The notes beneath the pieces are model-generated. The model saw only the letters and a program-made list of their open reading frames with translations. It was not told where the DNA came from and ran no database searches. 64,000 nucleotides of DNA from an uncultured delta proteobacterium (lineage in GTDB: Bacteria > Desulfobacterota > Binatia > UBA9968): the NCBI GenBank assembly GCA_963737905.1, contig CAVTUQ010000025.1, positions 64,001-128,000 on the forward strand, given 5' to 3'. Positions 10,995 through 22,246 of the stretch are shown here, in pieces; the first letter of the stretch is position 1; each line of letters starts with the position of its first letter. Position numbers and translations under genes: made by a program.

Positions 10995-11012
10995 CTGTCC
11001 ACTATTAGACAG
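10995..11012. promoter_or_regulatory. Inverted repeat CTGTC-N8-GACAG (candidate operator), duplicated at 20235-20252
   Basis: Conserved upstream of both paralogous membrane-protein genes. Confidence 0.45.
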
Positions 11013-11204
11013 CAATCCTTCCCGAGTATGGTTATATTACCCCAGAGAGCTGTAATGGCGTGCAAGAGGTAGAAGACCGGGCCACACACTCAACGGTGAC
11101 ATGGACTTCGGCTCCGGTTTGAATAGCGAACGTATTCCTGGTGCTGACCCCTCTCCCTCTTCCAATATCCAAAGGCTATCAAGAGCCTCAAAAAGGAGAG
11201 AGTT

Positions 11205-11765
11205 ATGAATCCTCTATTGATCATCGCCGTCCCCCTAGGGTTGGTGATTTTGGGCATGGTGCTAAACGGCATCGGCCTTGCTTACGATCAACCCCCCGGT
11301 TCAGAAGAACAAGATCCTACGAAAAGAGTGGCAGCGGAAAAGGAGATTTACCGAAAGTTCTTCAATCTCCAGAGAACCCGATCTGTAACCAGGCAGAAAA
11401 GGGTCGGCCAGTATGGCTGGTTGCTGATGGCTGCCTTTATCGGCGCTTTCATCTGGCTCTATATGTATACCGTGAACAAAACCACCGCGACGACTCGAAT
11501 TGCCACGCTGCAGACACTGCCGATGGAAGAAGGGAAGGGGACGGTTCTCTTGCTCACGCTGAAGGACGGGAGCAGTGTCAAATACCTGATCAAATCACCC
11601 CCACCCGATACCTCGGATGCCGCCACGAAAGAAGGAATTTCGAAACAGAAGGTCTCATCCTGGGACATGGAACAATCAGGTACGGTCTTGAGTATCGGCG
11701 AGAGTCCATTGCCTCTCGGTGTCGCCCTGAAAGTGTCCGTCGACCCGACAGTAAAAAAAGACTGA
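11205..11765 (+). CDS. Hypothetical membrane protein with two hydrophobic segments (paralogue 1)
   Basis: AAGGAG RBS; clear paralogue of 20301-20858 (shared VTRQKRVGQYGWLLMAAFIGAFIWLYM). Confidence 0.8.
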   Translation: MNPLLIIAVPLGLVILGMVLNGIGLAYDQPPGSEEQDPTKRVAAEKEIYRKFFNLQRTRSVTRQKRVGQYGWLLMAAFIGAFIWLYMYTVNKTTATTRIATLQTLPMEEGKGTVLLLTLKDGSSVKYLIKSPPPDTSDAATKEGISKQKVSSWDMEQSGTVLSIGESPLPLGVALKVSVDPTVKKD

Positions 11766-11807
11766 GTTAAAGCCTCGCCAAAAAAATGGGCGAAGCTTGA
11801 CTGAACG

Positions 11808-11845
11808 TCATTTCCACGTTTCGAGAATTCTCGAAACGTGGAAGT
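11808..11845. repeat. Palindromic repeat P1 (perfect 32-bp palindrome TTCCACGTTTCGAGAATTCTCGAAACGTGGAA)
   Basis: Read directly; preceded by CGTCAT. Confidence 0.9.
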
Positions 11846-12010
11846 GTCTTCACGAAAAACGAACACGAGCACGGCTCTTCAGTCTTTATCCTTCCAAACC
11901 CTTAAATAGTCGCCGCGAAATCGCCTAAACTCCGGGCCATGTCTTGAAAGATGACATGGATTTTCGGGTTTCATCCTTTAATCCCTTTGCCTTTCTCCTT
12001 TGAATGAGGT

Positions 12011-12062
12011 GGCAGTATCTTAGATGGGCGACCACGGATCACGAGCAAGATCACGGTGGTTT
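12011..12062. repeat. Hairpin repeat GGCAGT..CTTAGA..GCGACCACGGATC.CGAGCA.GATCACGGTGGTT (second copy 13310-13361)
   Basis: Two near-identical copies, each about 120-170 bp downstream of a P repeat. Confidence 0.8.
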
Positions 12063-12175
12063 CCCCGAGCATGCGGCCGTACGTTCGTGGTGCGTTCGTC
12101 GAACCATGAAACAGACTCTCCTTGCGGAGGCGTCTATCCCTTGCTTTCACTTTGAAAGCACCTTAGGCTTACTGG

Positions 12176-12667
12176 ATGCGAGGGGCCGCTTTTGACAGCT
12201 CGTTTTGGGTCAATGCAGTTTATCTGGATCTTATCGAGTTCCTGCTTTCGGATTTTGAGTTGATCTGTACTAAGGCGGTGGAAGACGAGTTAGGGCGCGA
12301 TAATTTAACGAGCCGCCGACTCAAGGCATTACTCGCTGACGAGAGTATCAAAAGAGCTGCACCAAGATCGGAAAGGATTAAACTGTATGGAGATGGGGAG
12401 AGAGCCGCTATTAACCTCGCGCTGGAGCGAAAAGTCCTATTGCTCATTGATGACTGGAGGCCTTATGAGGCGGCACAGGCAGCCGGAGTTGAGGTTATCA
12501 ACTCTCTAGCCTACTTGGTCGGGCTTTACGAACAGAAACGAATTACCCTAGAGCGGGCGTTACATGCCCTGGCCAAAACAACGCGCCGCGGAACTTTGAG
12601 ACCCGAATGGATCCAGTCCGCGGTAAGGGTTGTAGCGGAGATCCGACGCAAAGGAGAAAACCGATGA
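12176..12667 (+). CDS. PIN-domain toxin (DUF3368-like)
   Basis: FDSS...AVEDEL...GDGERAAI...LLIDD acidic PIN motif. Confidence 0.8.
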   Translation: MRGAAFDSSFWVNAVYLDLIEFLLSDFELICTKAVEDELGRDNLTSRRLKALLADESIKRAAPRSERIKLYGDGERAAINLALERKVLLLIDDWRPYEAAQAAGVEVINSLAYLVGLYEQKRITLERALHALAKTTRRGTLRPEWIQSAVRVVAEIRRKGENR

Positions 12668-13035
12668 AAAAGGAAAAACACGAGAAAACGACTGTTACCG
12701 TAAGACTAACAGACGAGGAAGATCAGGTCTTGAGCCGTCTCTGCATACTTAAGAAGACCAGCAAAACTGGATACCTTGCTCGTCTCGCTAAGGAGCAGGC
12801 CAAGCAGGAGCTTCTCCGTTACGCCGCCGAAGAATACCTGGGAGAAAGGGCATCCTTAAGCGAGCTGGCGAAAAAGACCGGCCTGGATGTGCCCACCATT
12901 ATGGATGAGGTTGCCAATCTCAAAGGGGAGGACAAGCGTGCGGTGGAGGCTTTTTTGTCGGCCGTGGAAACGATCTCGAAGTTAAACAAAGATCCAGAGT
13001 TCTATAATCTTGCCATCAATGCCGTCAGAGAATAA
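12664..13035 (+). CDS. Antitoxin (RHH plus UPF0175-like HTH)
   Basis: ATGA overlap with the toxin; TVTVRLT, Y...RASLSELAKKTGL. Confidence 0.7.
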   Translation: MKKEKHEKTTVTVRLTDEEDQVLSRLCILKKTSKTGYLARLAKEQAKQELLRYAAEEYLGERASLSELAKKTGLDVPTIMDEVANLKGEDKRAVEAFLSAVETISKLNKDPEFYNLAINAVRE

Positions 13036-13100
13036 ATGCGGCTCCACGGCGACAGCACGTCCGGACCGGGCAGCCCGGTACAGGAGAGCATAGAGCATTC

Positions 13101-13186
13101 GTTTCCACGTTTTTGGAATTCCGAAAACGTGGAAGTGTTACTGGGACTTCATTTCGACGTTTTGAGAATTATCAAAACGTGAAAGT
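13101..13186. repeat. Palindromic repeats P2 and P3 in tandem
   Basis: ttccacgtttttggaattccgaaaacgtggaagt and tcatttcgacgttttgagaattatcaaaacgtgaaagt. Confidence 0.9.
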
Positions 13187-13443
13187 TCCCCCAGGAACGA
13201 CGATGAGCACGGCTTTTTCCTCTCCTTGTCTCCGCACCTCTTTGTCCCGTGGACCGATTTCTGATCGCCTCACCCTTCACGCCTTACCCGGCACAATTTA
13301 TTTGATGTTGGCAGTTACTTAGACGCGGCGACCACGGATCGCGAGCACGATCACGGTGGTTACCCGTGCACGAGACCCGGGCACGGCTCTTTGCTTTCCT
13401 TCCGCTTCCAGCTTTGATCATTTATCTTTGTCGTTGTTTGGTC

Positions 13444-13799
13444 TTAAAGCGGTAGGAAAACAATTGTCTCCTCCCACTCTTCGGCGGTAGTGGCTTCTGC
13501 GATGAGCACCAGGTCATCAATCACTTGTCCTAAAGCAGCAGTCTGAGGCACCAAGATGAGACCGGTCATCGGCAGTCCTGCTTTTAGCCTTTCTTCCGCA
13601 CAGGGACGCATGGTCCGGTGATCATGTGTGATTACAACCCGACCTTGGGTCGCTGCCCAATCAAGGACCGCGGGGTCGGAGGCTTCAGGGAGATCTACTT
13701 CCTGTACAGTGGTGGAATCGAGATCAGATATTCTTCGGCGCACTCCGCGCACGATTCGCCCGTTGAGGTCTTCGTCGAAAGATACTTGACCCGGCTCAC
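13444..13799 (-). pseudogene. DUF5615 PIN-like toxin with a 1-nt frameshift near its N-terminus (possibly a sequencing error)
   Basis: GTG at 13799 overlaps the DUF433 stop. Adding one T to the T-run near 13779 gives VSRVKYLFDEDLNGRIVRG; downstream SDPAVLDWAATQGRVVITHD. Confidence 0.75.
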
Positions 13800-14137
13800 G
13801 AAGGCGTGGGTGATTGGCGGCTGGATAGTAGTTGCTGGCGAAGCTTACTCAGGAAGTCTCTGTGGCGACCGTTGAGCTCCTGTTGGAGCTTTTCTGCGCC
13901 GTCACGGCCCGCTCGAAGGTAGGCATCCACTTTGTCCCGCTTTTTCAGATAGTAGGCAATGGCTTCGTAGACTTGCGCTAGAGAGAGAGACGGAAAGTCC
14001 TGGCAAATTTCTTCCGGCGTCGCGCCCTCCCAGAAGGAATGGATCACGCTGTCTAGAGACACCCGAGTGCCGGCGATACGCCAGGTTCCTTGTGGCGTGC
14101 AGGTCAGCAGATCCGGCAGATCAAGATCGGGATTCAT
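13796..14137 (-). CDS. DUF433 antitoxin
   Basis: RIAGTRVSL...GATPEEICQDFPSLSLAQVYEAIAYY. Confidence 0.9.
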   Translation of the reverse strand: MNPDLDLPDLLTCTPQGTWRIAGTRVSLDSVIHSFWEGATPEEICQDFPSLSLAQVYEAIAYYLKKRDKVDAYLRAGRDGAEKLQQELNGRHRDFLSKLRQQLLSSRQSPTPS

Positions 14138-14216
14138 AAAAAGCCATATTAGACCAGCCAGTTGTTAAGGGCAAATCGCTATTGTGTGTCACTTCCGCCC
14201 TTGGCCCCTCATTACT

Positions 14217-14253
14217 TCATTTCGCCGGTTCGAGAATTCCAAGGAACGTGGTA
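14217..14253. repeat. Degenerate palindromic repeat P4, abutting the IS21 end
   Basis: tcatttcgccggttcgagaattccaaggaacgtgg. Confidence 0.65.
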
Positions 14254-14399
14254 AGATGCGTATTCCGATGAAATCGCCACCGATTCCGAAACAAAGTGGC
14301 ACTGATTCCGGCGCAAATCGGCAGTCCGAGAAATCGGAGCGAAGCGACGCTGGGATTTTGTTCATAGCCTAAAGGTTCTCTTTATTGCAAGTCCGGTGA

Positions 14400-15128
14400 T
14401 CATTTTTTCGTTTTTCTGATCGATTCTCCTTTCAGTTCGATTTTAAAACTGTGGTGAAGCAGGCGATCCAAGATGGCATCGGCGACGGTGGGCTCCCCGA
14501 TGATTGTGTGCCAGTCTTTGATCGGGCACTGGCTGGTAATGACGGTGGGAGCCTTATGGTAGCGGTCCTCGATGATTTCGAGCAGATCATTGCGTTGAGA
14601 ATCATCGAGCGGAGTCAGAAACAGATCATCGACGATGAGCAGTTGGACCTTGGCCAGCCGGGTCAGCATTTTAAGATGCGAGCCATCCGCTTTAGCCCCA
14701 AGCAGCATTTCGAACAGACGTGGAGCGCGCAGATAGAGAACCGTATGGCCGTGGCGGGCAGCGAAGTTACCGAGGGCACAGGCAATGTAGCTTTTACCCA
14801 CGCCGGTGGGGCCAGTCAAAAGCATAGTTTGATGACGAGTGATCCAGTCTGAAGAAGAGAGTTCCAAGAGGGTTTGTTTGTTTAAGCCACGGGGATGTTT
14901 GTAATCGATGTCTTCGAGACAAGCGGGTTGGGTGAGCTTAGCGTTTAGGAGGAGGCGTTTAAGGCGGAGATTATCGCGGTAAGTTTTTTCGTCCTGGACA
15001 ATCAGGCCGAAGAACTCCTGGTGGGAGAGATCGACGGATGAGGGATGAGCGATCTTGTCGGTAAAGCTTCGGGCCATACCGAAGAGTTTGAGGGAGTTGA
15101 GGGTGTGCAGAGTTTGTTCGGTAAGCAT
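14400..15128 (-). CDS. istB: IS21 helper ATPase IstB
   Basis: GPTGVGKS Walker A, LLIVDD Walker B, ADAILDRL. Confidence 0.95.
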   Translation of the reverse strand: MLTEQTLHTLNSLKLFGMARSFTDKIAHPSSVDLSHQEFFGLIVQDEKTYRDNLRLKRLLLNAKLTQPACLEDIDYKHPRGLNKQTLLELSSSDWITRHQTMLLTGPTGVGKSYIACALGNFAARHGHTVLYLRAPRLFEMLLGAKADGSHLKMLTRLAKVQLLIVDDLFLTPLDDSQRNDLLEIIEDRYHKAPTVITSQCPIKDWHTIIGEPTVADAILDRLLHHSFKIELKGESIRKTKK

Positions 15129-15259
15129 CAGAGATTTTCCTTTCTAGTTTTGGTTGCGGTTTAAAATTGGGGGTAGTCTACCCCTTCAGCCCATTGAGAA
15201 CGTGCGTTAATGAGGCTTTAAACGCGTCGTTTTTTGTTTCGATCATCTGATTTTCACCC

Positions 15260-16036
15260 TCAGTGGTAAGACTGGCCGCCGCGGATGTTGTCGTGGGCCG
15301 GCAGCACCGCCGTCGAGCCCGAGTCTCTTTGTTCCAACCGATCCAGTCCGTTCTCCAACATTTTGCGCAGCGCTTTGAGCGAGAGATTCGAGTAGCGCAG
15401 CGCCCGAGCGGCGGCGTTTTCCAGACGCTCTTTGGGATAGTGCTTATCGAGGCGCAGGATGCCCAGACACGAGCGGTAGGCTTGTTCGGGGTGGGAGCGG
15501 CTCTCGATGATGGTTTTAACCAGTCGAGCGGTGTGCGGACCGGTCTTTTCGGCCCAGCGGATGAATCGCGACGGGCTCCATTCGGCATAGGCCCGGTGGG
15601 TCGGTGGCATGTGTTCTTTGAGCGTGGTGTGCTGATGGGGCACAAAACTTCGCAGGTGGGTGGCTATGCGCTGGCCTTTGCGAAAGGCCTCCACCGTGTG
15701 GGCAGTAAGCCGCACTTGGAGTCTTTCGCCTTTAAGTTTATACGGCACGCTGTAGTAGTGCTCGTCGACTTCGATGTGGTAATCGATGTTGACACCGGCG
15801 ATCTTCCACTCGGCGTACTGGTAAGATTTCTGGGGCAGGGCCAGAGCGTTGGGCTGATCGAAGAGTAAAAAGAGCTGGCGGCGCGATTGCTTGAGTTTGC
15901 GCAGTGCTCGGTTATTCAAAGGTTGGAGCAGTTCACCGATGGCGGCAATAGAGATCGGCCAAGGTGTAAAACAGTCCGATGGCGCAAGACGGCCAGGATC
16001 CAGCGCTTGGCGATCAGCACGCCATTTTCCACCTGC
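15260..16036 (-). pseudogene. istA: IS21 transposase IstA, C-terminal fragment
   Basis: VENGV..AKRWILA (frameshifted), DYHIEVDEHYYSVP, HDNIRGGQSYH; DDE N-terminal part absent. Confidence 0.88.
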
Positions 16037-16109
16037 CTTATGAAAGTGTACATTTGAAATCTACCATTTAGAAAATGGATGGGATGGGCGGTTTGCTACT
16101 AAACGACGG

Positions 16110-16153
16110 CTTGAACGGAGCGAAGCGATTGAACGGCTGGAACGATTGGAACG
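16110..16153. repeat. TTGAACG-type tandem repeat cluster
   Basis: cttgaacggagcgaagcgattgaacggctggaacgattggaacg; same family as 24284-24495 and 28103-28197, in reverse orientation. Confidence 0.75.
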
Positions 16154-16240
16154 TGTGCCCGCTATGTTGGCATCGCTGGAGAGCCGTGCTAGGATGCATC
16201 ACTACGCTGCACTGTTGATGCACAAGAATTGAGGGGGGCC

Positions 16241-16504
16241 ATGAAGGCAATCACTTTAAGAAACCTACCGCCGGACCTGGCGAAAGCCGTGCGCAGGGAA
16301 GCAGAGCGTAAGCGGACAAGTATCAACAAGGCGGTCATCAGCTTGCTGGAGAGCAAGGCGGATATTCAGAAGAAAAAGAAGGGTCGAAAACCGCATCACC
16401 AAGAGCTGGACGCTTTGGCCGGGTCATGGAGTAAGAAAGAGGCGGAGGAGTTCGACAAAGCGTTGGCCGCTCAGAGACCCATTGATCCCGATTTGTGGAA
16501 GTAA
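16241..16504 (+). CDS. FitA/VapB-like RHH antitoxin
   Basis: MKAITLRNLP...TSINKAVI...LAGSWS; directly upstream of vapC. Confidence 0.85.
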   Translation: MKAITLRNLPPDLAKAVRREAERKRTSINKAVISLLESKADIQKKKKGRKPHHQELDALAGSWSKKEAEEFDKALAAQRPIDPDLWK

Positions 16505-16903
16505 ATGCGGTTGTTGCTCGACACCTCCGCTTATTCAGCGTTTATGAGGGGACATGCGGAGATTAGGGCTGCCGTTCAGAGCAATGAAGAGATCTTTCTA
16601 AACTCGGTTATTTTGGGCGAACTCATCGCGGGGTTCATCAAAGGCGGGCGGAGGAGGAAAAACGAAAATGAGCTTCGAAGGTTTCTGGCGTCTCCTCGCG
16701 TAGGGGTTTTGAACGTGACTGAGGAGACGGCCGAAAGATATGCGGTCATTCTCAACTTCCTCTGGCGTGCCGGCACACCTATACCGACAAACGATATCTG
16801 GATTGCGGCCAGTGCTATGGAGCACGGCCTTCGCGTGGTGACGACTGATGATCACTATCAGAAGGTCCCTCAGGTCATGACCGATTATTTCCCGGTCGTA
16901 TAG
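16505..16903 (+). CDS. vapC: VapC PIN toxin
   Basis: LLDTSAYS...GEL...IPTNDIWIAASA...VTTD. Confidence 0.93.
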   Translation: MRLLLDTSAYSAFMRGHAEIRAAVQSNEEIFLNSVILGELIAGFIKGGRRRKNENELRRFLASPRVGVLNVTEETAERYAVILNFLWRAGTPIPTNDIWIAASAMEHGLRVVTTDDHYQKVPQVMTDYFPVV

Positions 16904-16909
16904 GCTAAT

Positions 16910-16950
16910 TCATTTTGACATTTCGGGAATTCTCGAAAGACTGAAATGTC
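16910..16950. repeat. Palindromic repeat P5
   Basis: tcattttgacatttcgggaattctcgaaagactgaaatg, 6 bp after the vapC stop. Confidence 0.75.
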
Positions 16951-16988
16951 ACGATAAGTTTGCCGCAGTAATTTGTTCCACGGCTTCC

Positions 16989-17018
16989 TTGACAACTGTC
17001 ACATTTTTTGGGTACACA
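16989..17018 (+). promoter_or_regulatory. Sigma70-like promoter with an overlapping TGACA-AC-TGTCA operator
   Basis: TTGACA -35 box and a palindrome just upstream of the ATG at 17024. Confidence 0.5.
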
Positions 17019-17023
17019 TATCT

Positions 17024-17218
17024 ATGGGTCGATGGAAGCGTCATGGCGTCATAGTCGTGCTGTTTTCCACCGACCACGATCCGAAGCACGTTCATGTGTT
17101 TGAGGACAGGAAGCGCCTTCTGAAGTTCAATCTCGAAACGTGGACGGTGATGGAGGGAAAGATGACGCCGAAGGCGAAGAAGGCTTTGGAGACTTTACGG
17201 AAAGAGGGGATTTTATGA
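17024..17218 (+). CDS. DUF4160-family putative toxin
   Basis: FSTDHDPKHVHV motif. Confidence 0.75.
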   Translation: MGRWKRHGVIVVLFSTDHDPKHVHVFEDRKRLLKFNLETWTVMEGKMTPKAKKALETLRKEGIL

Positions 17219-17703
17219 GAAACCCGAAATTTAAGGAAATCAAACCGAACTACCGAAAGAACGTACTGGAGATCACGCTGCGCGATGGAAAGAAGATAAA
17301 GAGCTACAGTTTACCCTTCGCGGTCTTCAGGGATGTGAAGGTTAGCAGTAGGAATCGATTTACGTCGATGACGATAGATCGCGAGCTGGGTGACCAAGCG
17401 GTGTCCTTTGTTCTCGAAGATGGATCCAAGGGGGATTTCCCGGCTGACTTCGTCTTGTACTATTGTGATCCCACCTACCATTGGTCGCCGTTGAATCAGC
17501 TAAAGAGTGCACTGAAGGACAAGATTTCAACTTCCAGACTATCTGTTCGTGTGATTGCGGACGCTCTTGATACGTCTCCGTCCCAGGTGGCGCGCTTGCT
17601 CCAAGAAAACAAAACCTCCAAACATATTGTCCAGCTCATTCGGCTGGCCGAACTGGCTGGCTATCAGATCGAGTTTTCCCTCAAGAAGAAGAGAGCAGCC
17701 TAG
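17215..17703 (+). CDS. Putative antitoxin with a C-terminal HTH
   Basis: ATGA-coupled to the DUF4160 gene; LSVRVIADALDTSPSQVARLL HTH. Confidence 0.7.
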   Translation: MRNPKFKEIKPNYRKNVLEITLRDGKKIKSYSLPFAVFRDVKVSSRNRFTSMTIDRELGDQAVSFVLEDGSKGDFPADFVLYYCDPTYHWSPLNQLKSALKDKISTSRLSVRVIADALDTSPSQVARLLQENKTSKHIVQLIRLAELAGYQIEFSLKKKRAA

Positions 17704-17769
17704 GATTGCGAGGTTCTGGGGTTTGCTCATTCTGACGGTTTCAACGGTATTTCGGGGGCGGAGGTTTCT

Positions 17770-17943
17770 ATGAAGATAAAATACTCGCGTGACGCGGACG
17801 TTTTGACTATCAAATTACGGGAAGGTAAACCCTCGGATTCGCGAGACATAGCCGAAGGAATCATTGTCCACCTGACGGCCAAAGGGCAGCCTCTAGAGAT
17901 CGAAATTCTCGATGCCTCCAAGGTAGTCTGCGTATTCCGATGA
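17770..17943 (+). pseudogene. DUF2283 antitoxin, 3' end cut by an IS21 end sequence; partner toxin absent
   Basis: My translation MKIKYSRDADVLTIKL...GQPLEIEILDASKVV runs into TGCGTATTCCGATGAAATCG at 17929. Confidence 0.75.
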
Positions 17944-17948
17944 AATCG
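17929..17948. mobile_element. Isolated IS21 terminal sequence
   Basis: 20 bp identical to 14257-14276, same orientation. Confidence 0.75.
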
Positions 17949-18019
17949 GCTCATTCACCTATTCAACACCCAGAACTTCATCCCTTGCGGCTAACGTTAG
18001 TTGTGTATATACATAATTG

Positions 18020-18118
18020 ATGTTCGATTGGGACCCTCCAAAGGCAAAGGCTAATCAGCTCAAGCACGGGGTCTCTTTTGAAGAAGCAGCTACGGCATTT
18101 CTTGATAAAAGTTTCTAG
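18020..18118 (+). pseudogene. brnT: BrnT toxin N-terminal fragment
   Basis: My translation MFDWDPPKAKANQLKHGVSFEEAATAF*; near-palindrome tgtgtatatacata upstream. Confidence 0.85.
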
Positions 18119-18127
18119 AAAATTTAG

Positions 18128-18262
18128 CTTGCAGGCTGCTCAAAAAGACTCAGAGGCAAGGCGCGCGAACATCGATGAGCGGAGGCGTACTTTTCCTGTA
18201 CGTTGACGCGAAATCGGTCGAGTGCAACGAGGCATATGAGTCTTTTTCAGCAGGCTGTTAAG
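18128..18262. mobile_element. About 135-bp MITE with ~25-bp imperfect terminal inverted repeats, in place of the brnT 3' half
   Basis: cttgcaggctgctcaaaaagactca ... tgagtctttttcagcaggctgttaag. Confidence 0.75.
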
Positions 18263-18273
18263 GAGACAAGACC

Positions 18274-18567
18274 ATGAAGCGGTCACGCGGATCATCAGCG
18301 CGAGGCGGGCGAGCCGGAAGGAAAGGAAAGGTTACGAGGAAAAAAAAGATTGACTTTTCGGACATTCCGGAGCTTTCCGAGAAGCAGCTTTCCCGAATGC
18401 GTCGGGTGGGAAGGCCGACGGTGGGTGAGGAACCAAGAAAACTCATCGCGATACGCTTAGATCCGAAAGTCTTGGGTTGGTTGCGCGAAACCGCTGAGAA
18501 AAAGGGATTGCCTTATCAGTCGCTCGTCAATCAGATCTTGGCAGAGGAAATGAAGAAGGCAAGCTAG
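18274..18567 (+). CDS. brnA: BrnA antitoxin
   Basis: IDFSDIPEL...GRP...IAIRLDPKVLGW...YQSLVNQIL. Confidence 0.9.
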   Translation: MKRSRGSSARGGRAGRKGKVTRKKKIDFSDIPELSEKQLSRMRRVGRPTVGEEPRKLIAIRLDPKVLGWLRETAEKKGLPYQSLVNQILAEEMKKAS

Positions 18568-18593
18568 ACCGGAATAGCAACGCTGCTCAGTCC

Positions 18594-18698
18594 AAGGCCG
18601 TCCTCGACGCGATTCGGCAGCTCATGGCGCCGCCGGAGCCGAACAAACGGAAAATCGGCTTTCTGGTTGAGGAAAAAGCAGCACGCTACGGAAGGTGA
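18594..18698 (+). pseudogene. C-terminal fragment of an ORF6N/KilA-N-type DNA-binding protein
   Basis: My translation KAVLDAIRQLMAPPEPNKRKIGFLVEEKAARYGR*. Confidence 0.6.
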
Positions 18699-18708
18699 TA
18701 GCGACCTG

Positions 18709-18746
18709 TCATTTTGACGTTTCGAGAATTATCAAAACGTGGAAGT
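18709..18746. repeat. Palindromic repeat P6
   Basis: tcattttgacgtttcgagaattatcaaaacgtggaagt. Confidence 0.9.
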
Positions 18747-18759
18747 CCCCCCGGTTATT

Positions 18760-18897
18760 GTTGTGAAGAAGGGTAAACCCTTTGCGGCAGTAGTCGCTGC
18801 GTTGGAAGAGACGAGCCCGAAAGTTTATATCATTACAGCCTACGAACCGAATCTGGAGCACTTCGAGAATAACTTTAGAACGAGGAGAAAGAGGTGA
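18760..18897 (+). pseudogene. DUF4258 toxin C-terminal remnant
   Basis: VYIITAYEPNLEHFENNFRTRRKR*, GTGA-coupled to the YgiT gene; N-terminus lost at P6. Confidence 0.7.
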
Positions 18898-19133
18898 ATA
18901 AGAAGAAGGCGTCAACCCTGTGCCCAATTTGTTCTGGTCGCAAAAAGCGGGGGACTACGACCTTCACCGCCGATTTGGATTTCGGTGTCGTTGTAGTGCG
19001 GAAGGTACCGGCAACAGTCTGTAGTCAATGCGGCGCGGACTGGATTGAGGATAGGATCGCCAGGCAGCTCGAAGATATTGTTAAGGACGCCCGGAAAAGG
19101 CGACTGGAAGTAGAAGTTACCTCTTTCAGTTGA
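18894..19133 (+). CDS. YgiT-type zinc-finger (MqsA-like) antitoxin
   Basis: CPIC...VPATVCSQCG. Confidence 0.88.
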   Translation: MNKKKASTLCPICSGRKKRGTTTFTADLDFGVVVVRKVPATVCSQCGADWIEDRIARQLEDIVKDARKRRLEVEVTSFS

Positions 19134-19308
19134 GTAGCTTCGGAGAGGCTCGGCAGTGAGACCCGGGCACGGCTCTTTGCCTTCTTTCACTTTCGGCTTT
19201 GACCATTCATCCTTGTTTAACCCGCCGGTGACCGGAGATGCGGGCTCGAAAATCGAGCCTAACAGGTGATATAGACGAGCCGCTCGCTATCGTGTAGAAT
19301 TTTCGCTG

Positions 19309-19539
19309 ATGAAAATACTCAAAGCTAAGTATGAAAACGGGCAAGTGAAATTGACGGAGCCGGCGCCAGAAGCCGGACCCGTCGATGTGGAGGTCGTGTT
19401 TCTTGACCGAGATGATCAGCGTTGGGACGAAATCATTCGAGACCCTGGGCTCAGGCCGGCTCTTTGCGCTGAGGCCGATCAGGTTCTTGAGGACTATCGG
19501 GTAGGTAAAACGGCGCCTCTGGACCCCGAAAAACTCTGA
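19309..19539 (+). CDS. Putative antitoxin (AF2212/DUF104-like N-terminus)
   Basis: AKYENGQVKL motif; acidic C-terminus; coupled to the toxin. Confidence 0.7.
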   Translation: MKILKAKYENGQVKLTEPAPEAGPVDVEVVFLDRDDQRWDEIIRDPGLRPALCAEADQVLEDYRVGKTAPLDPEKL

Positions 19540-19805
19540 ACAGCCGAACACATCCTCGCTTTTGGGACCGCTACCGTAAACTTCCTGCTCAGGTTCAGGA
19601 AGAAGCCAGAAAAGCCTATCGCCTTTTCAGTCAAAACCCCGCTCACCCGAGTTTGCGGTTTGAGCGGCTGGCCTACGATCCTCGTCTCTGGTCGGTCCGC
19701 GTAACAAGTTCATATCGTGCCGTAGGTGTACGCGAAGGAGAGGAGATCATCTGGTTCTGGATCGGATCTCACGACGAATTTGACCGAACGTTCCCTCGCC
19801 GATAG
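19536..19805 (+). CDS. RelE/ParE-superfamily toxin with a CTG start (missed by the ORF track)
   Basis: My translation LNSRTHPRFWDRYRKLP...NPAHPSLRF...WSVRV...YRAVG...WFWIGSHDEFD; CTGA overlap with the antitoxin stop. Confidence 0.88.
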   Translation: MNSRTHPRFWDRYRKLPAQVQEEARKAYRLFSQNPAHPSLRFERLAYDPRLWSVRVTSSYRAVGVREGEEIIWFWIGSHDEFDRTFPRR

Positions 19806-19952
19806 CTTCTTCTCTAAATTGCTGTATTCTGTCCCAAGGAAATCCGCTGACGCCGAGAAGCGGGCGATCGTCCACCATCTTCAGCGCAAATTCGCGGAGA
19901 CCTCGGATTGGTCAGCAACAGTGGGAGACCGCTTACCCGAAGCCGGTTGAGG

Positions 19953-19991
19953 TACATTTCGAGGTTTCGAGAATTATCAAAACGTGGAAGT
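19953..19991. repeat. Palindromic repeat P7
   Basis: catttcgaggtttcgagaattatcaaaacgtggaagt; downstream ttccgccaggaacg resembles the P3 flank. Confidence 0.88.
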
Positions 19992-20300
19992 TCCGCCAGG
20001 AACGGAGGACTAAGTCCCGCAGGATCTCCGAACACGATCACGAGCCACGAACATGGCCCTTTACCCCTTTTGTCAGAACCGGGCCATGCGGGCGCCGGGG
20101 TTACGGATAAGACCAAGCCGCACGATCCTTTTCTCGAGGATGGAGCCAAGCGGAAAATGCGCTCCTTCTGTTCACGCCCTCCACGGCGCTCTTTACGGAG
20201 AGCGATCTTTTTATCGCGATAATTCTTTTCAAGACTGTCCAATATTAGACAGCAATCCCTCCCGGGAGAGGCTATCAAGAGCCTTAAAAAGGAGAGAGTT

Positions 20301-20858
20301 ATGAATCCTCTAATATTGATCGCTGTACCCTTAGGGTTGGTGATCCTGGGCATGATATTGAACAGCCACGATCTCGGGTTCAATCAACCGCCAAGCTCGA
20401 CGGAGCAAGATCCGGTTAAGAGATTGACTGCGGAAAAGGAATCTTACCGCCAGTTTTTTGACCGGCAGCGCAAACGAGCGGTGACCAGGCAGAAACGGGT
20501 CGGGCAATATGGCTGGTTGCTGATGGCCGCCTTTATCGGCGCTTTCATCTGGCTATATATGGATACGGTGAATAAGACCAGCCTTTCGAGTCGAGTTGCC
20601 GCGCTTCAAACATTGGGAACGGAAGAAGGTAAACAGATGGTTCTCTCGGTGACGCTGAGCGACGGGAACAATGTCAAATACTTGATCAAATTACCCCAAG
20701 CCGACAAATTAAATGCTCCCGCAAAAGAAGACGTTAAGATAGAAAAGGTCTCATCCTGGGAGCTGGAAAGATTAGGCACGGCATTGAGTACCGGCGATAA
20801 TCCGTTACCTATGGGTGTCGCGCTGAAGATTTCCCAAGTAGCAAAGGAAGCCAGATAG
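20301..20858 (+). CDS. Hypothetical membrane protein (paralogue 2)
   Basis: Homologous to 11205-11765, including the RBS and upstream region. Confidence 0.8.
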   Translation: MNPLILIAVPLGLVILGMILNSHDLGFNQPPSSTEQDPVKRLTAEKESYRQFFDRQRKRAVTRQKRVGQYGWLLMAAFIGAFIWLYMDTVNKTSLSSRVAALQTLGTEEGKQMVLSVTLSDGNNVKYLIKLPQADKLNAPAKEDVKIEKVSSWELERLGTALSTGDNPLPMGVALKISQVAKEAR

Positions 20859-20946
20859 AGCCGGGGATTTCTAGAGATCGTCGTTGGCGCAGATGCGTCT
20901 CGCATAAATGGCTCTAAGTTTAATCTACAAAAGGAGGTAACTGAAA

Positions 20947-21510
20947 ATGGAAAACAATATCGAGACCAATCCCATGAACCATGACATCTTGGCGGGAAGG
21001 TGGAAGCAAATGCGCGGCGAGCTCAAAACGTGGTGGGGCAAACTCACCGATGACGACGTCGATAGAATCGGCGGTCAGAAGGACAAGCTGATCGGTCTGA
21101 TCCAAGAGCGATACGGGTATACTCGCGAGCAGGCCGAGCAAGAGATTGAGCGGCGCTTTCAAGAGTATGGCGACAAGACAGGCGGGGTCGTTGCCAGTAT
21201 GTCGGCCAAGGCCCGAGAGCTCGGCTCGACTGCAGCGAGAAAGGCGAACGAAGGGGCACCCGTTATCGGTGAGAAGATGAAATCGCTGGCGAGCGTGATC
21301 CGTGAAAAGGCGCCGCGCGAAGGCAAGATAGGCACAACTGCAACCAAAGTAGCGGGCGGGTTAGAATCGGCGAGTTATTATCTGCAAGAGAAGAAATTCG
21401 AGCATCTGGGAGAAGACTTGAGTGGCCTGGTTCGTCGCTACCCGCTGCAGGCGCTGTTGGTCGGTCTTGGTTTAGGCTTTTTGCTCGCCGGACGTAAGAA
21501 AAAGGAATGA
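20947..21510 (+). CDS. CsbD-family stress protein with a C-terminal membrane anchor
   Basis: GRWKQMRGELKTWWGKLTDDD...LIGLIQERYG; RRYPLQALLVGLGLGFLL; AGGAGG RBS. Confidence 0.88.
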   Translation: MENNIETNPMNHDILAGRWKQMRGELKTWWGKLTDDDVDRIGGQKDKLIGLIQERYGYTREQAEQEIERRFQEYGDKTGGVVASMSAKARELGSTAARKANEGAPVIGEKMKSLASVIREKAPREGKIGTTATKVAGGLESASYYLQEKKFEHLGEDLSGLVRRYPLQALLVGLGLGFLLAGRKKKE

Positions 21511-21728
21511 ATGATCAGAAAAGCTATAAGAGAAGCATGAGCACCTCTAGCAAGGGTGCTGAAAAAGAAATCCAAGATCAGACTTGAGTTCCCGAATTGG
21601 CACCTCAAGCTGGTGATTCTCGGGTTCTTGTCAGAGGGAGGTGATTTTTTATGGCGCATGATCACAAATATATTATCGCGGACGATCAGGAGACCAGTGA
21701 AATCAGCTCACTAAAGGGGGCGGGTCCT

Positions 21729-21751
21729 GGGGTCAAATCTTTATTCTTGAC
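21729..21751. repeat. GGGGTCA-type motif upstream of the RAYT; inverted TGACCCC at 23564-23570
   Basis: ggggtcaaatctttattcttgac. Confidence 0.5.
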
Positions 21752-21782
21752 ATTCATGCCTCGCTTCGCATAAAAAATCGAC

Positions 21783-22246
21783 ATGGCGCGACCACTGAGA
21801 ATAAACTACCCCGGAGCTTTTTATCACGTGACCTGCCGCGGCAATGAACGGAAGACCATTTTCGCTGATGACCGGGATCGGTCGATCTTTCTCGACAAGG
21901 TCAAAACATCCAATGAGATTTATCAGGTTCGGATCCATGCCTACGTGTTGATGAGCAATCACTTTCATTTGATTGTTGAGACGCCGAAAGGGAACCTTTC
22001 CGAGTTCATGCGGCATTTCAATATCACTTACACTGCAGCCTATAATCGCCGCCACAACCGGATTGGCCACCTCTACCAGGGAAGATTCAAAGCGATCTTG
22101 ATCGATGCTGACAATTACCTGCTGGAACTCAGCCGATATGTGCACTTAAATCCAGTACGATTGGCCTCGTATAAGGGGCGGATGAGCGTGAAAAGATCAA
22201 GGATCTAAAGTGCTATCGGTGGAGCAGTCTTGGAGGATATCTCAGC
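21783..22246 (+). pseudogene. REP-associated (RAYT-like) Y1 HUH transposase; catalytic domain complete, frameshift near 22180, C-terminus truncated by the argA-like gene
   Basis: MARPLR, YHVTCRGN, LMSNHFHL (HUH), GHLYQGRF, RYVHLNPV; YRWSS continues in a shifted frame. Confidence 0.85.

Follow-up and report, generated by a model that had tools for sequence, protein, structure and literature searches.

The array in the window

The stretch analysed here, which we call the window, comprises 64,000 nucleotides (contig CAVTUQ010000025.1, C25:64001-128000) of the 6.7-Mb, 46-contig assembly GCA_963737905.1 (G000), derived from an uncultured bacterium of Candidatus Binatia. It carries an array of small gene cassettes, many of them toxin-antitoxin (TA) modules, punctuated by a hairpin-forming repeat that we name PAL. 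The repeat has a 38-base conserved block (TCATTTCGACGTTTCGAGAATTCTCGAAACGTGGAAGT, a near-palindrome centred on GAATTC) within a full conserved element of approximately 41 nt. As set out below, PAL recurs throughout the family of its source, a group of uncultured soil bacteria, keeps one direction within each array, sits at the 3' ends of cassettes and lies at or near the points where related genomes diverge. Together, these features tentatively suggest a cis-acting cassette boundary that also serves as a recombination site.

Repeat finding in the window located seven copies of PAL, all in one orientation, at 11808, 13099, 13149, 14217, 16910, 18709 and 19954. An original prediction, made from the sequence letters, had already placed seven co-oriented copies here, with two of its starts (13101 and 19953) 1-2 nt off. 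One repeat family (D4) contains all seven copies and a second (D2) contains six of them, while the originally proposed pattern, searched with up to 3 mismatches, matched 4 loci in the window versus 0 in 100 shuffles. The copies belong to two sequence types, A and B, defined below.

11808..11845, plus strand: PAL P1, type A, a near-perfect palindrome 43 nt past the stop of gene A; DNA fold -18.7 kcal/mol, z -5.3.
13099..13136, plus strand: PAL P2, type A-like, first member of a doublet; P2 and P3 together fold at -28.2 kcal/mol, z -6.9.
13149..13186, plus strand: PAL P3, type B (T15, A23, A26), second member of the doublet.
14217..14254, plus strand: PAL P4, degenerate, with the right arm gone and no hairpin; in repeat family D4 only; nhmmer E=1.2e-7; fold z +1.3.
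16910..16947, plus strand: PAL P5, 7 nt past the stop of the PIN toxin gene, outer right arm diverged; fold z -2.8.
18709..18746, plus strand: PAL P6, mixed A/B type, between two gene fragments; fold z -0.1.
19954..19991, plus strand: PAL P7, mixed A/B type, the last copy of the array; fold z -1.1.

Measured against shuffled sequences, the single-stranded DNA fold is strong in P1 and in the P2-P3 doublet and moderate in P5. The hairpin has decayed in three of the seven window copies, since P4, P6 and P7 fold no better than shuffles, and the conserved hairpin that was originally proposed for all copies therefore holds for four of them.

Between the repeats, and at the two borders of the array, lie the following features.

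11205..11765, plus strand: gene A, at the left edge of the array; encodes a small protein that has hydrophobic stretches and matches no Pfam family.
11846..12175, plus strand: leader after P1; non-coding; contains repeats of the CACGA type and a CT-rich stretch, as well as the motif GGTGGCAGT.ACTTAGA and, at 12027-12065, another imperfect palindrome (repeat families D8 and D9).
12176..13035, plus strand: cassette 1; two overlapping open reading frames (ORFs), encoding 163 and 123 aa, neither with a significant match to Pfam.
13187..13443, plus strand: second copy of the leader, after P3 (repeat families D8, D9 and D11).
13444..14137, minus strand: cassette 2; a pair of DUF433 and DUF5615 genes that run opposite to PAL.
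14400..15919, minus strand: remnant of an IS21 insertion sequence (IS) inserted in the array; IstB intact at 242 aa, IstA reduced to its C-terminal Mu-transposase domain.
16229..16903, plus strand: cassette 3; a FitA-like ribbon-helix-helix (RHH) antitoxin and a PIN toxin (VapBC-like), with TTGAAC 9-mer repeats upstream at 16106-16152.
16973..17943, plus strand: cassette 4; DUF4160, a 162-aa ORF with a weak helix-turn-helix (HTH) match, and DUF2283.
18023..18567, plus strand: cassette 5; BrnT, of which 31 N-terminal aa are left, an interrupting element at ~18111-18265 resembling a miniature inverted-repeat transposable element (MITE), then BrnA.
18739..19133, plus strand: cassette 6; the C-terminal part of a toxin, probably DUF4258, starting within P6, and a zinc-ribbon (MqsA/YokU-like) antitoxin.
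19309..19805, plus strand: cassette 7; a 76-aa antitoxin candidate and a ParE-like toxin without a canonical start codon.
20301..20858, plus strand: gene B, at the right edge of the array; paralogous to gene A (78% nucleotide identity over 300 nt) and sharing its upstream region (repeat families D1 and D5).

The TA content proposed for the array was largely borne out by Pfam, which recognized DUF5615, DUF433, the FitA-like RHH and PIN pair, DUF4160, BrnA, the N-terminal fragment of BrnT, the YokU/MqsA-like zinc ribbon and the ParE-like toxin, and which additionally found DUF2283 and the IS21 remnant. The module originally called DUF3368-PIN at 12176-12667 gave no Pfam match even at E<=1. The evidence for the DUF4258 fragment is slight, namely a BLASTP match (E=0.057) that covers residues 67-108 of a DUF4258 protein of 109 aa. 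Gene fragments are present on both sides of P6, as had been predicted. Part of cassette 1 has a 90% homologue in G001:C93, G001 and G002 being genomes of the same genus as G000, and the inverted DUF433/DUF5615 arrangement of cassette 2 was also seen in G041.

Distribution of PAL

Pattern and profile searches found no further PAL match elsewhere inside the 64-kb window, in agreement with the original prediction. The repeat is not private to this locus, as approximately eight more loci lie in the same genome. Specifically, a profile of the seven copies revealed further copies in G000 at C2:522011, C39:25145, C40:121467 and C21:81934, plus half of one at C26:242120 and, in C7:12.4-15.6 kb, three variants. 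Most of these additional loci adjoin TA genes (MNT, PIN, MazF/RHH, DUF5615, Gp49/HigA-like and zeta toxin genes).

A covariance model (R1) was built from PAL and used to scan relatives. By this model, PAL is present in 24/24 genomes of the source's family (f1), which represent 23 genera of Candidatus Binatia, or in 22/22 when two unpublished genomes (G006 and G012) are set aside. It was found in 2/5 genomes of family f2 and in 0/11 of the sister family f3. A class-wide scan returned PAL in 6/7 f1 genomes and in 0/133 genomes from 18 other families. The scan of own and related genomes that the original prediction called for places PAL family-wide, with recurring arrays that bound TA modules. 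Further, an exact-pattern scan of 185,579 species genomes recovered at least 146 stretches, and among the matches listed nearly all came from metagenome-assembled genomes (MAGs) labelled Candidatus Binatia or 'Deltaproteobacteria bacterium'. Plasmid and phage collections held no match to P1 plus its flanks. We found no prior description in print, as the full-text literature returned no paper combining Binatia with integron or Binatota with toxin-antitoxin.

Structure and subtypes of PAL

The copies were pooled into a set of 218 non-redundant sequences, of which 196, those with no more than 7 mismatches to the consensus, were kept. Pairing follows i+j=41, with an inner stem of 10 bp (9-18/23-32) closed by an AATT loop and an outer stem of 5 bp (3-7/34-38). 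Two irregularities are themselves conserved, namely a T4.G37 wobble in the outer stem (153/196 copies) and a G8.G33 mismatch between the stems (144/196). The arms covary at pair 15-26, which the scan pattern left free (C-G in 119 copies, T-A in 60, other in 17), and at pair 7-34 (C-G in 113, T-A in 28), and rare double swaps from G-C to C-G and from C-G to T-A occur at pairs 11-30 and 10-31. In 11 copies of G000 alone, pairing and covariation beat 499/500 shuffles and all slid controls. The arm covariation that was originally read from the window is thus present at two pairs, although it rests mainly on pairs that separate two subtypes. These are type A (C15/G26, 116-117 copies) and type B (T15/A26, 60 copies), with 16 mixed copies that include P6 and P7. 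We considered whether the mixed sites arose by a central crossover, joining a left arm of one type to a right arm of the other, and rejected this, as the 16 sites are mosaics and not clean half-site hybrids.

The hairpin is strand-specific. Under RNA parameters the top strand is the more stable in 151 of the 196 copies and the bottom strand in 38 (Wilcoxon p=1.5e-18), and only the top strand tolerates T.G and G.T positions. Doublets are direct repeats, with type A followed by type B at a distance of 12-25 nt in G000, G041 (three times) and G004, and in the reverse order (B then A), 36 nt apart, in G015. Conservation ends at the edges of the ~41-nt block. Beyond it the downstream side is nonetheless distinct from the upstream side: CACGA occurs 77 times in the 70 nt downstream of 189 copies versus 10 times upstream, and TTGAAC 9-mers lie within 70 nt downstream of 42/189 copies versus 3/189 upstream. 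Alignment further showed that P1, P3 and one copy in G001:C156 have a common non-coding leader of 260-330 nt. Small minus-strand ORFs in the leader were considered as genes and discarded, as a 1-nt indel between leader copies speaks against coding.

Arrays in other genomes

Seven further arrays were examined beside that of the window.

G041:C2: twenty PAL copies in 24 kb.
G042:C13: thirteen PAL copies.
G013:C33: eight PAL copies in 5.4 kb.
G021:C57: seven PAL copies.
G023:C263: five PAL copies.
G015:C52: four PAL copies.
G001:C156: three PAL copies.

Across the eight arrays, which together hold 67 PALs, the repeat keeps a single direction within each array, two copies having tied strand scores. 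On a larger scale its direction changes, flipping four times along one 3.5-Mb contig. The genes in the other arrays include AbiEi/AbiEii, zeta toxin, HEPN/MNT, HepT, HicAB, Phd/ParE, Gp49-HTH and DUF4258 with an MqsA-like antitoxin, as well as DUF433, PIN, DUF2283, four-helix 23S_rRNA_IVP genes and a few metabolic genes. In a manual tally, the nearest 5' gene with a Pfam match was co-oriented with PAL in 17/19 cases, at a distance of 4-441 nt upstream, and both exceptions were DUF433 cassettes.

Breakpoints between genomes

Comparison with the same-genus genomes revealed differences that break at PAL or within ~50 nt of it, as the original prediction would have it. In G001:C156, the antitoxin/ParE cassette of the window (91% over 667 nt) lies between two PALs, and its neighbours there are a PIN/DUF5647 module and an MNT gene, unlike those in the window. 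G002:C388 matches gene A, P1 and 48 nt more, and then continues into unrelated genes. At the ftsH locus (C40), homology to G001 and G002 starts 8 nt past PAL, and both of these genomes are without PAL at that place. Contigs from four soil-metagenome runs join window cassettes to the PAL edges 11845, 16910, 18705/18708, 11805/11808 and 19949, and to leader positions.

A tentative model of cassette exchange

We tentatively favour, with confidence somewhat short of even, the reading that PAL is a family-specific, cis-acting element that bounds the cassettes and is recombined by an enzyme whose gene lies elsewhere. This reading fits best because it accounts for a strand-specific conserved hairpin, its direct orientation, its position at the 3' end of cassettes, its restriction to one family and the breakpoints at or near PAL. 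Under such a model, a cassette would usually be a TA or other defence operon that carries PAL at its 3' end, co-oriented with its genes. An enzyme encoded elsewhere in the genome would recognize PAL, probably as a folded single strand, and two co-oriented PALs would recombine to release a cassette with one PAL, which could then re-enter at another PAL. Repeated rounds would be expected to build the arrays, the singletons, the A-B doublets and the mixed sites. Site-specific (as opposed to homologous) recombination, a single-stranded substrate and the nature of the enzyme are the inferred parts of this model.

Several observations weigh against this reading. First, none of the arrays examined contains a recombinase gene or has one alongside, and the enzyme is therefore a guess. 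No tyrosine recombinase (PF00589) was found within 35 kb of the arrays in G000, G041, G042 and G043, and no serine recombinase (PF00239) in G000, which is 87% complete. Second, neither an excised circle nor an empty-versus-filled pair with PAL on both sides was seen, and the shorter side of the soil-contig joints measures only 19-33 nt (24-33 nt at PAL edges), so that they report adjacency in other organisms and not long-range order. Third, several breakpoints are displaced from PAL into the leader, by 8-50 nt or more on its right-hand side, a pattern that homologous recombination between repeats would equally give, and P6 abuts truncated genes on both sides, which clean site-specific exchange would not yield. 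Because some junctions lie in the leader and P6 is flanked by gene fragments, homologous or illegitimate events also shape the arrays. Fourth, an automatic tally using naive ORF calls counted 56 co-oriented versus 35 opposite left neighbours over 98 copies, a result that we judged too noisy. Finally, most of the 196 copies came from the exact-pattern scan, which fixed positions 9-14, 16, 18-22, 24-25 and 27-32 and thereby inflates inner-stem conservation in that set, and the covariation may reflect few independent events, since the covarying pairs separate subtypes A and B.

Two serine recombinase loci were seen in other genomes. In G041, two adjacent large serine recombinases (753-aa and 560-aa frames; C2:1274452-1277067) lie 5.5-7.6 kb beyond the 20-copy array, an arrangement found in that genome only; G042 has a similar pair, on a different contig from its PAL array.

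Alternative explanations

The alternative that survives best, and that we nevertheless regard as unlikely, is that PAL is a selfish hairpin like the repetitive extragenic palindromic (REP) elements, or a non-autonomous end of the IS200/IS605 type, moved as single-stranded DNA by a Y1/HUH transposase acting in trans; PAL would accumulate in TA islands, where recombination between copies would shuffle the cassettes. REPs, their inverted pairs (REPINs) and the associated tyrosine transposases (RAYTs) offer obvious parallels, being short imperfect palindromes with a stem mismatch, intergenic after genes and presumably recognized as single-stranded hairpins, and PAL is likewise a strand-specific imperfect hairpin. 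The ends of IS200/IS605 elements are direct-oriented hairpins that flank cargo, and the cassettes match this geometry; as in such elements and in palindrome-associated transposable elements (PATEs), cargo lies between similar direct hairpins on one strand, where Y1 could mobilize it in trans. The position of P6 beside truncated genes would also suit an element able to land inside genes. Candidate enzymes, moreover, are present. Y1_Tnp genes are present in 23/24 f1 genomes, 6 of approximately 50 Y1 genes in G000, G041, G042 and G043 lie within 10 kb of PAL versus ~1.1 expected (our own arithmetic), and the window has one 1.8 kb from the array.

21783..22208, plus strand: Y1/HUH transposase (RAYT-like), 141 aa; N-terminal catalytic domain intact, frameshift near 22200, truncated.

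This gene is cut by an opposing GNAT gene, whereas its relatives reach ~320-330 aa. The RAYT with an intact HUH/Tyr core that was originally noted 1.8 kb away does possess the motifs, but as a truncated and frameshifted gene.

The link proposed between such an enzyme and PAL is not supported. None of 17 Y1_Tnp loci (gene +/-1.5 kb) carries PAL at E<=0.1, and the defining arrangement of a REP-flanked RAYT is therefore missing. Nor do the two co-occur as REP and RAYT would, as Y1 genes are found in 9/11 genomes of the PAL-free family f3 and in 5/5 of f2, G043 has 35 Y1 matches and only 11 PAL matches, and G019, a PAL-bearing f1 genome that is 100% complete, gave no Y1 match. The PAL doublets are direct repeats and not the inverted pairs of REPINs, copies number tens and not hundreds per genome, and PAL is conserved in 23 genera, where a REP sequence is usually limited to a single species. 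A YGTCATT start had been put forward as a REP-like feature, but there is no information left of T1 in 189-196 copies, and neither the 117 copies of type A nor the 60 of type B have a conserved tetranucleotide beyond the stem. By the standards of IS200/IS605 and PATEs, PAL lacks conserved cleavage or guide motifs at a fixed distance outside the hairpin, no tnpA or tnpB lies inside the cassettes, and the genomes contain Y1 genes but none beside PAL. Further, insertion directed purely by the replication strand would not give the four orientation flips on one 3.5-Mb contig. The kilobase-scale proximity of Y1 genes to PAL, in turn, could be explained by shared residence in flexible genome islands and is only a hint.

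It is also possible, though we think it quite unlikely, that PAL works at the RNA level, where a hairpin at the 3' end of cassette transcripts would stabilise them, direct their processing or bind a protein, and that the rearrangements reflect ordinary homologous recombination between the repeats. The location of PAL 3' of co-oriented genes in 17 of the 19 Pfam-supported cases would be expected of such a hairpin, as would the greater stability of the top strand under RNA parameters and the tolerance, on that strand only, of T.G and G.T positions, which would be G.U pairs in RNA; the breakpoints that fall in the leader and not in PAL also agree with it. An intrinsic terminator, however, is not what PAL resembles, as its 3' flank consensus is TTCC..., with no T-run after the stem, and 0/13 terminator-like sites in 11000-21000 coincide with PAL. 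No Rfam family matches PAL, and the segment 10800-22300 gave only a chance snoRNA match (E=0.93). Moreover, PAL keeps the direction of its array beside inverted DUF433 cassettes in two genomes, and a role in RNA would leave unexplained why one 38-nt sequence should accompany unrelated cassettes in 23 genera and form doublets 12-36 nt apart.

A third alternative, improbable in our judgement, is that PAL is a very short, non-canonical attC site and that the arrays are clusters of attC sites lacking integron integrases (CALINs), served in trans by the integron integrase of the family. The architecture fits well. In both cases, arrays of promoter-poor small cassettes, many of them TA modules, each end in a co-oriented hairpin with a conserved strand asymmetry, arrays and single sites occur far from any integrase, and the site sequence is conserved within a lineage, for which the chromosomal integrons treated in PMC8618304 provide a precedent. 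The fold topology of PAL (outer stem, mismatch, inner stem and loop) resembles the succession of R box, spacer, L box and terminal loop. The integrase is also available: no integrase lies in the window, as had been stated, but the genome does encode a full integron integrase (C7:226498-227442; TIGR02249, 456 bits against a cut-off of 265), and full IntI was found in 11/24 f1 relatives and 3/3 long-read MAGs, as compared with 0/11 genomes of f3, which is also without PAL.

The site itself argues otherwise. As defined by Cury et al. 2016 (PMC4889954), attC sites have R and L boxes with conserved AAC and GTT triplets, central spacers that stay unpaired, extrahelical bases and terminal structures measuring 20-100 nt. 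When such a site folds, the 5'-AAC...GTT-3' triplets make up the R box at its base. Set against that description, PAL has GTT (11-13) before AAC (28-30), in reversed order and in the apical stem, and its 38-41 nt form a continuous stem that contains a single G.G mismatch and neither spacer nor bulges, closed by the 4-nt loop AATT. The absence of attC ends noted originally is thus confirmed in triplet order, triplet position and stem structure. Further, no PAL turned up near intI in this family. A search of 12 loci that contain or adjoin one of ten intI genes, among them a 40-kb stretch around that of G000, gave no PAL at E<=0.01 and a single weak match at E=0.33, and in the three long-read MAGs the PAL arrays lie on other contigs than intI or >280 kb away.

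What adjoins intI is, instead, of the canonical kind. The 5' flank of intI, which by eye we take to contain lexA and imuA/imuB in G000, is syntenic across genera, and the 3' flank is variable (G000 and relatives L014, L015, L053, L236 and L238). In G041, G043 and G018, this 3' flank carries sites of 60-100 nt with (G/A)YCTAAC...GTTAGRY ends (for example, GCCTAAC...GTTAGGC), whose folded form shows an R box of 7 bp, a short spacer, bulges in the stems and a loop that varies. Called by our own heuristic, which combines a regular expression with folding, and not by IntegronFinder, such attC-like sites number five in 42 kb near intI, whereas all 6.7 Mb of G000 contain nine and the window array has none. 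Because canonical sites, and not PAL, adjoin intI, we conclude that the family has ordinary integrons with ordinary attC sites and that the PAL arrays are something else. A relaxed heuristic (any 7-mer that ends in AAC, with GTT plus 4 nt as its partner) was dropped as uninformative, with a background of 0.8 per 15 kb.

Two side observations concern the integrons of G000. No canonical attC-like site lies within 20 kb of its intI, which may therefore be cassette-less. At C26:155109-159405, a degraded integrase fragment (136 bits, one in-frame stop) stands beside two attC-like hairpins, probably a decayed integron.

Among known systems, integron cassettes with CALINs and the dif modules of Acinetobacter are the closest to PAL arrays in behaviour, and PAL belongs to neither. 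Like PAL cassettes, dif modules, as described in PMC13141974, are discrete, very often TA-encoding and bounded by short sites; they are shuffled by a recombinase that lies outside the module, and empty or fused modules occur. Their plasmid-borne pdif sites, according to the same paper, consist of 28 bp (a XerC arm, a 6-bp spacer and a XerD arm) in orientations that must alternate, whereas PAL is a chromosomal near-palindrome of 38-41 nt, always direct within an array, with arms that covary.

Implications for cassette platforms

The site-based stockpiling and shuffling of small cassettes is known from two systems, integrons and Acinetobacter dif modules. Beside canonical integrons there may be a second, integrase-independent cassette platform, in which a 38-nt strand-specific hairpin would act as the recombination site, an enzyme encoded elsewhere (a Y1/HUH enzyme or a housekeeping recombinase) would act on it, and TA and defence cassettes would be captured and shuffled; in this specific form we consider the idea possible but doubtful. 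The broader proposal in the original prediction, of an integron-like cassette platform distinct from integrons, gains support from the family-wide TA arrays, from the breakpoints at or near PAL and from the departures from attC. PAL occurs in one family only, where the same genomes also contain true integrons, and no recombinase adjoins it. If it is indeed a third type of site, cassette platforms would have evolved repeatedly, with different chemistry. The testing of candidate enzymes on oligonucleotides should be straightforward because PAL is short, highly conserved and strand-asymmetric. Further, the covariance model would provide a sequence handle for mining soil metagenomes for mobile TA and defence genes that are presumably missed by integron-based tools.

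Other features of the array and its borders

The border genes of the array may be cassettes themselves. In the same-genus genomes, copies of the gene A/B family are each followed by a conserved stem-loop (CTTGAGGTGCC...GGCACCTCAAG) and then by PAL (for example, L209 2300-2430). In the window, a CsbD gene is inserted between gene B and its stem-loop, and the stem-loop that ends the gene B unit, at 21566-21780, precedes a truncated small ORF and the truncated Y1 transposase, at a place where G001 has PAL.

Within the array, the ParE-like ORF of cassette 7 (19542-19805) has no ATG, GTG or TTG before codon 38 and may start at CTG or be inactive. The region of the IS21 remnant at ~14.7-15.4 kb has little or no soil-metagenome contig cover in three runs, from which we draw no interpretation. 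The MITE-like element of cassette 5 (18111-18265), which measures ~135-150 bp, has terminal inverted repeats and splits the BrnT toxin gene, is present in >50 copies in each of two same-genus genomes and produces a strong depth spike in soil-metagenome contigs. Finally, tandem 9-mers of the TTGAAC/GTTCAA type, which lie upstream of cassette 3 in the window and also at L014 14930-15450 and 17237-17606, occur as inverted arrays that flank 23S_rRNA_IVP genes as if the whole were a mobile unit.

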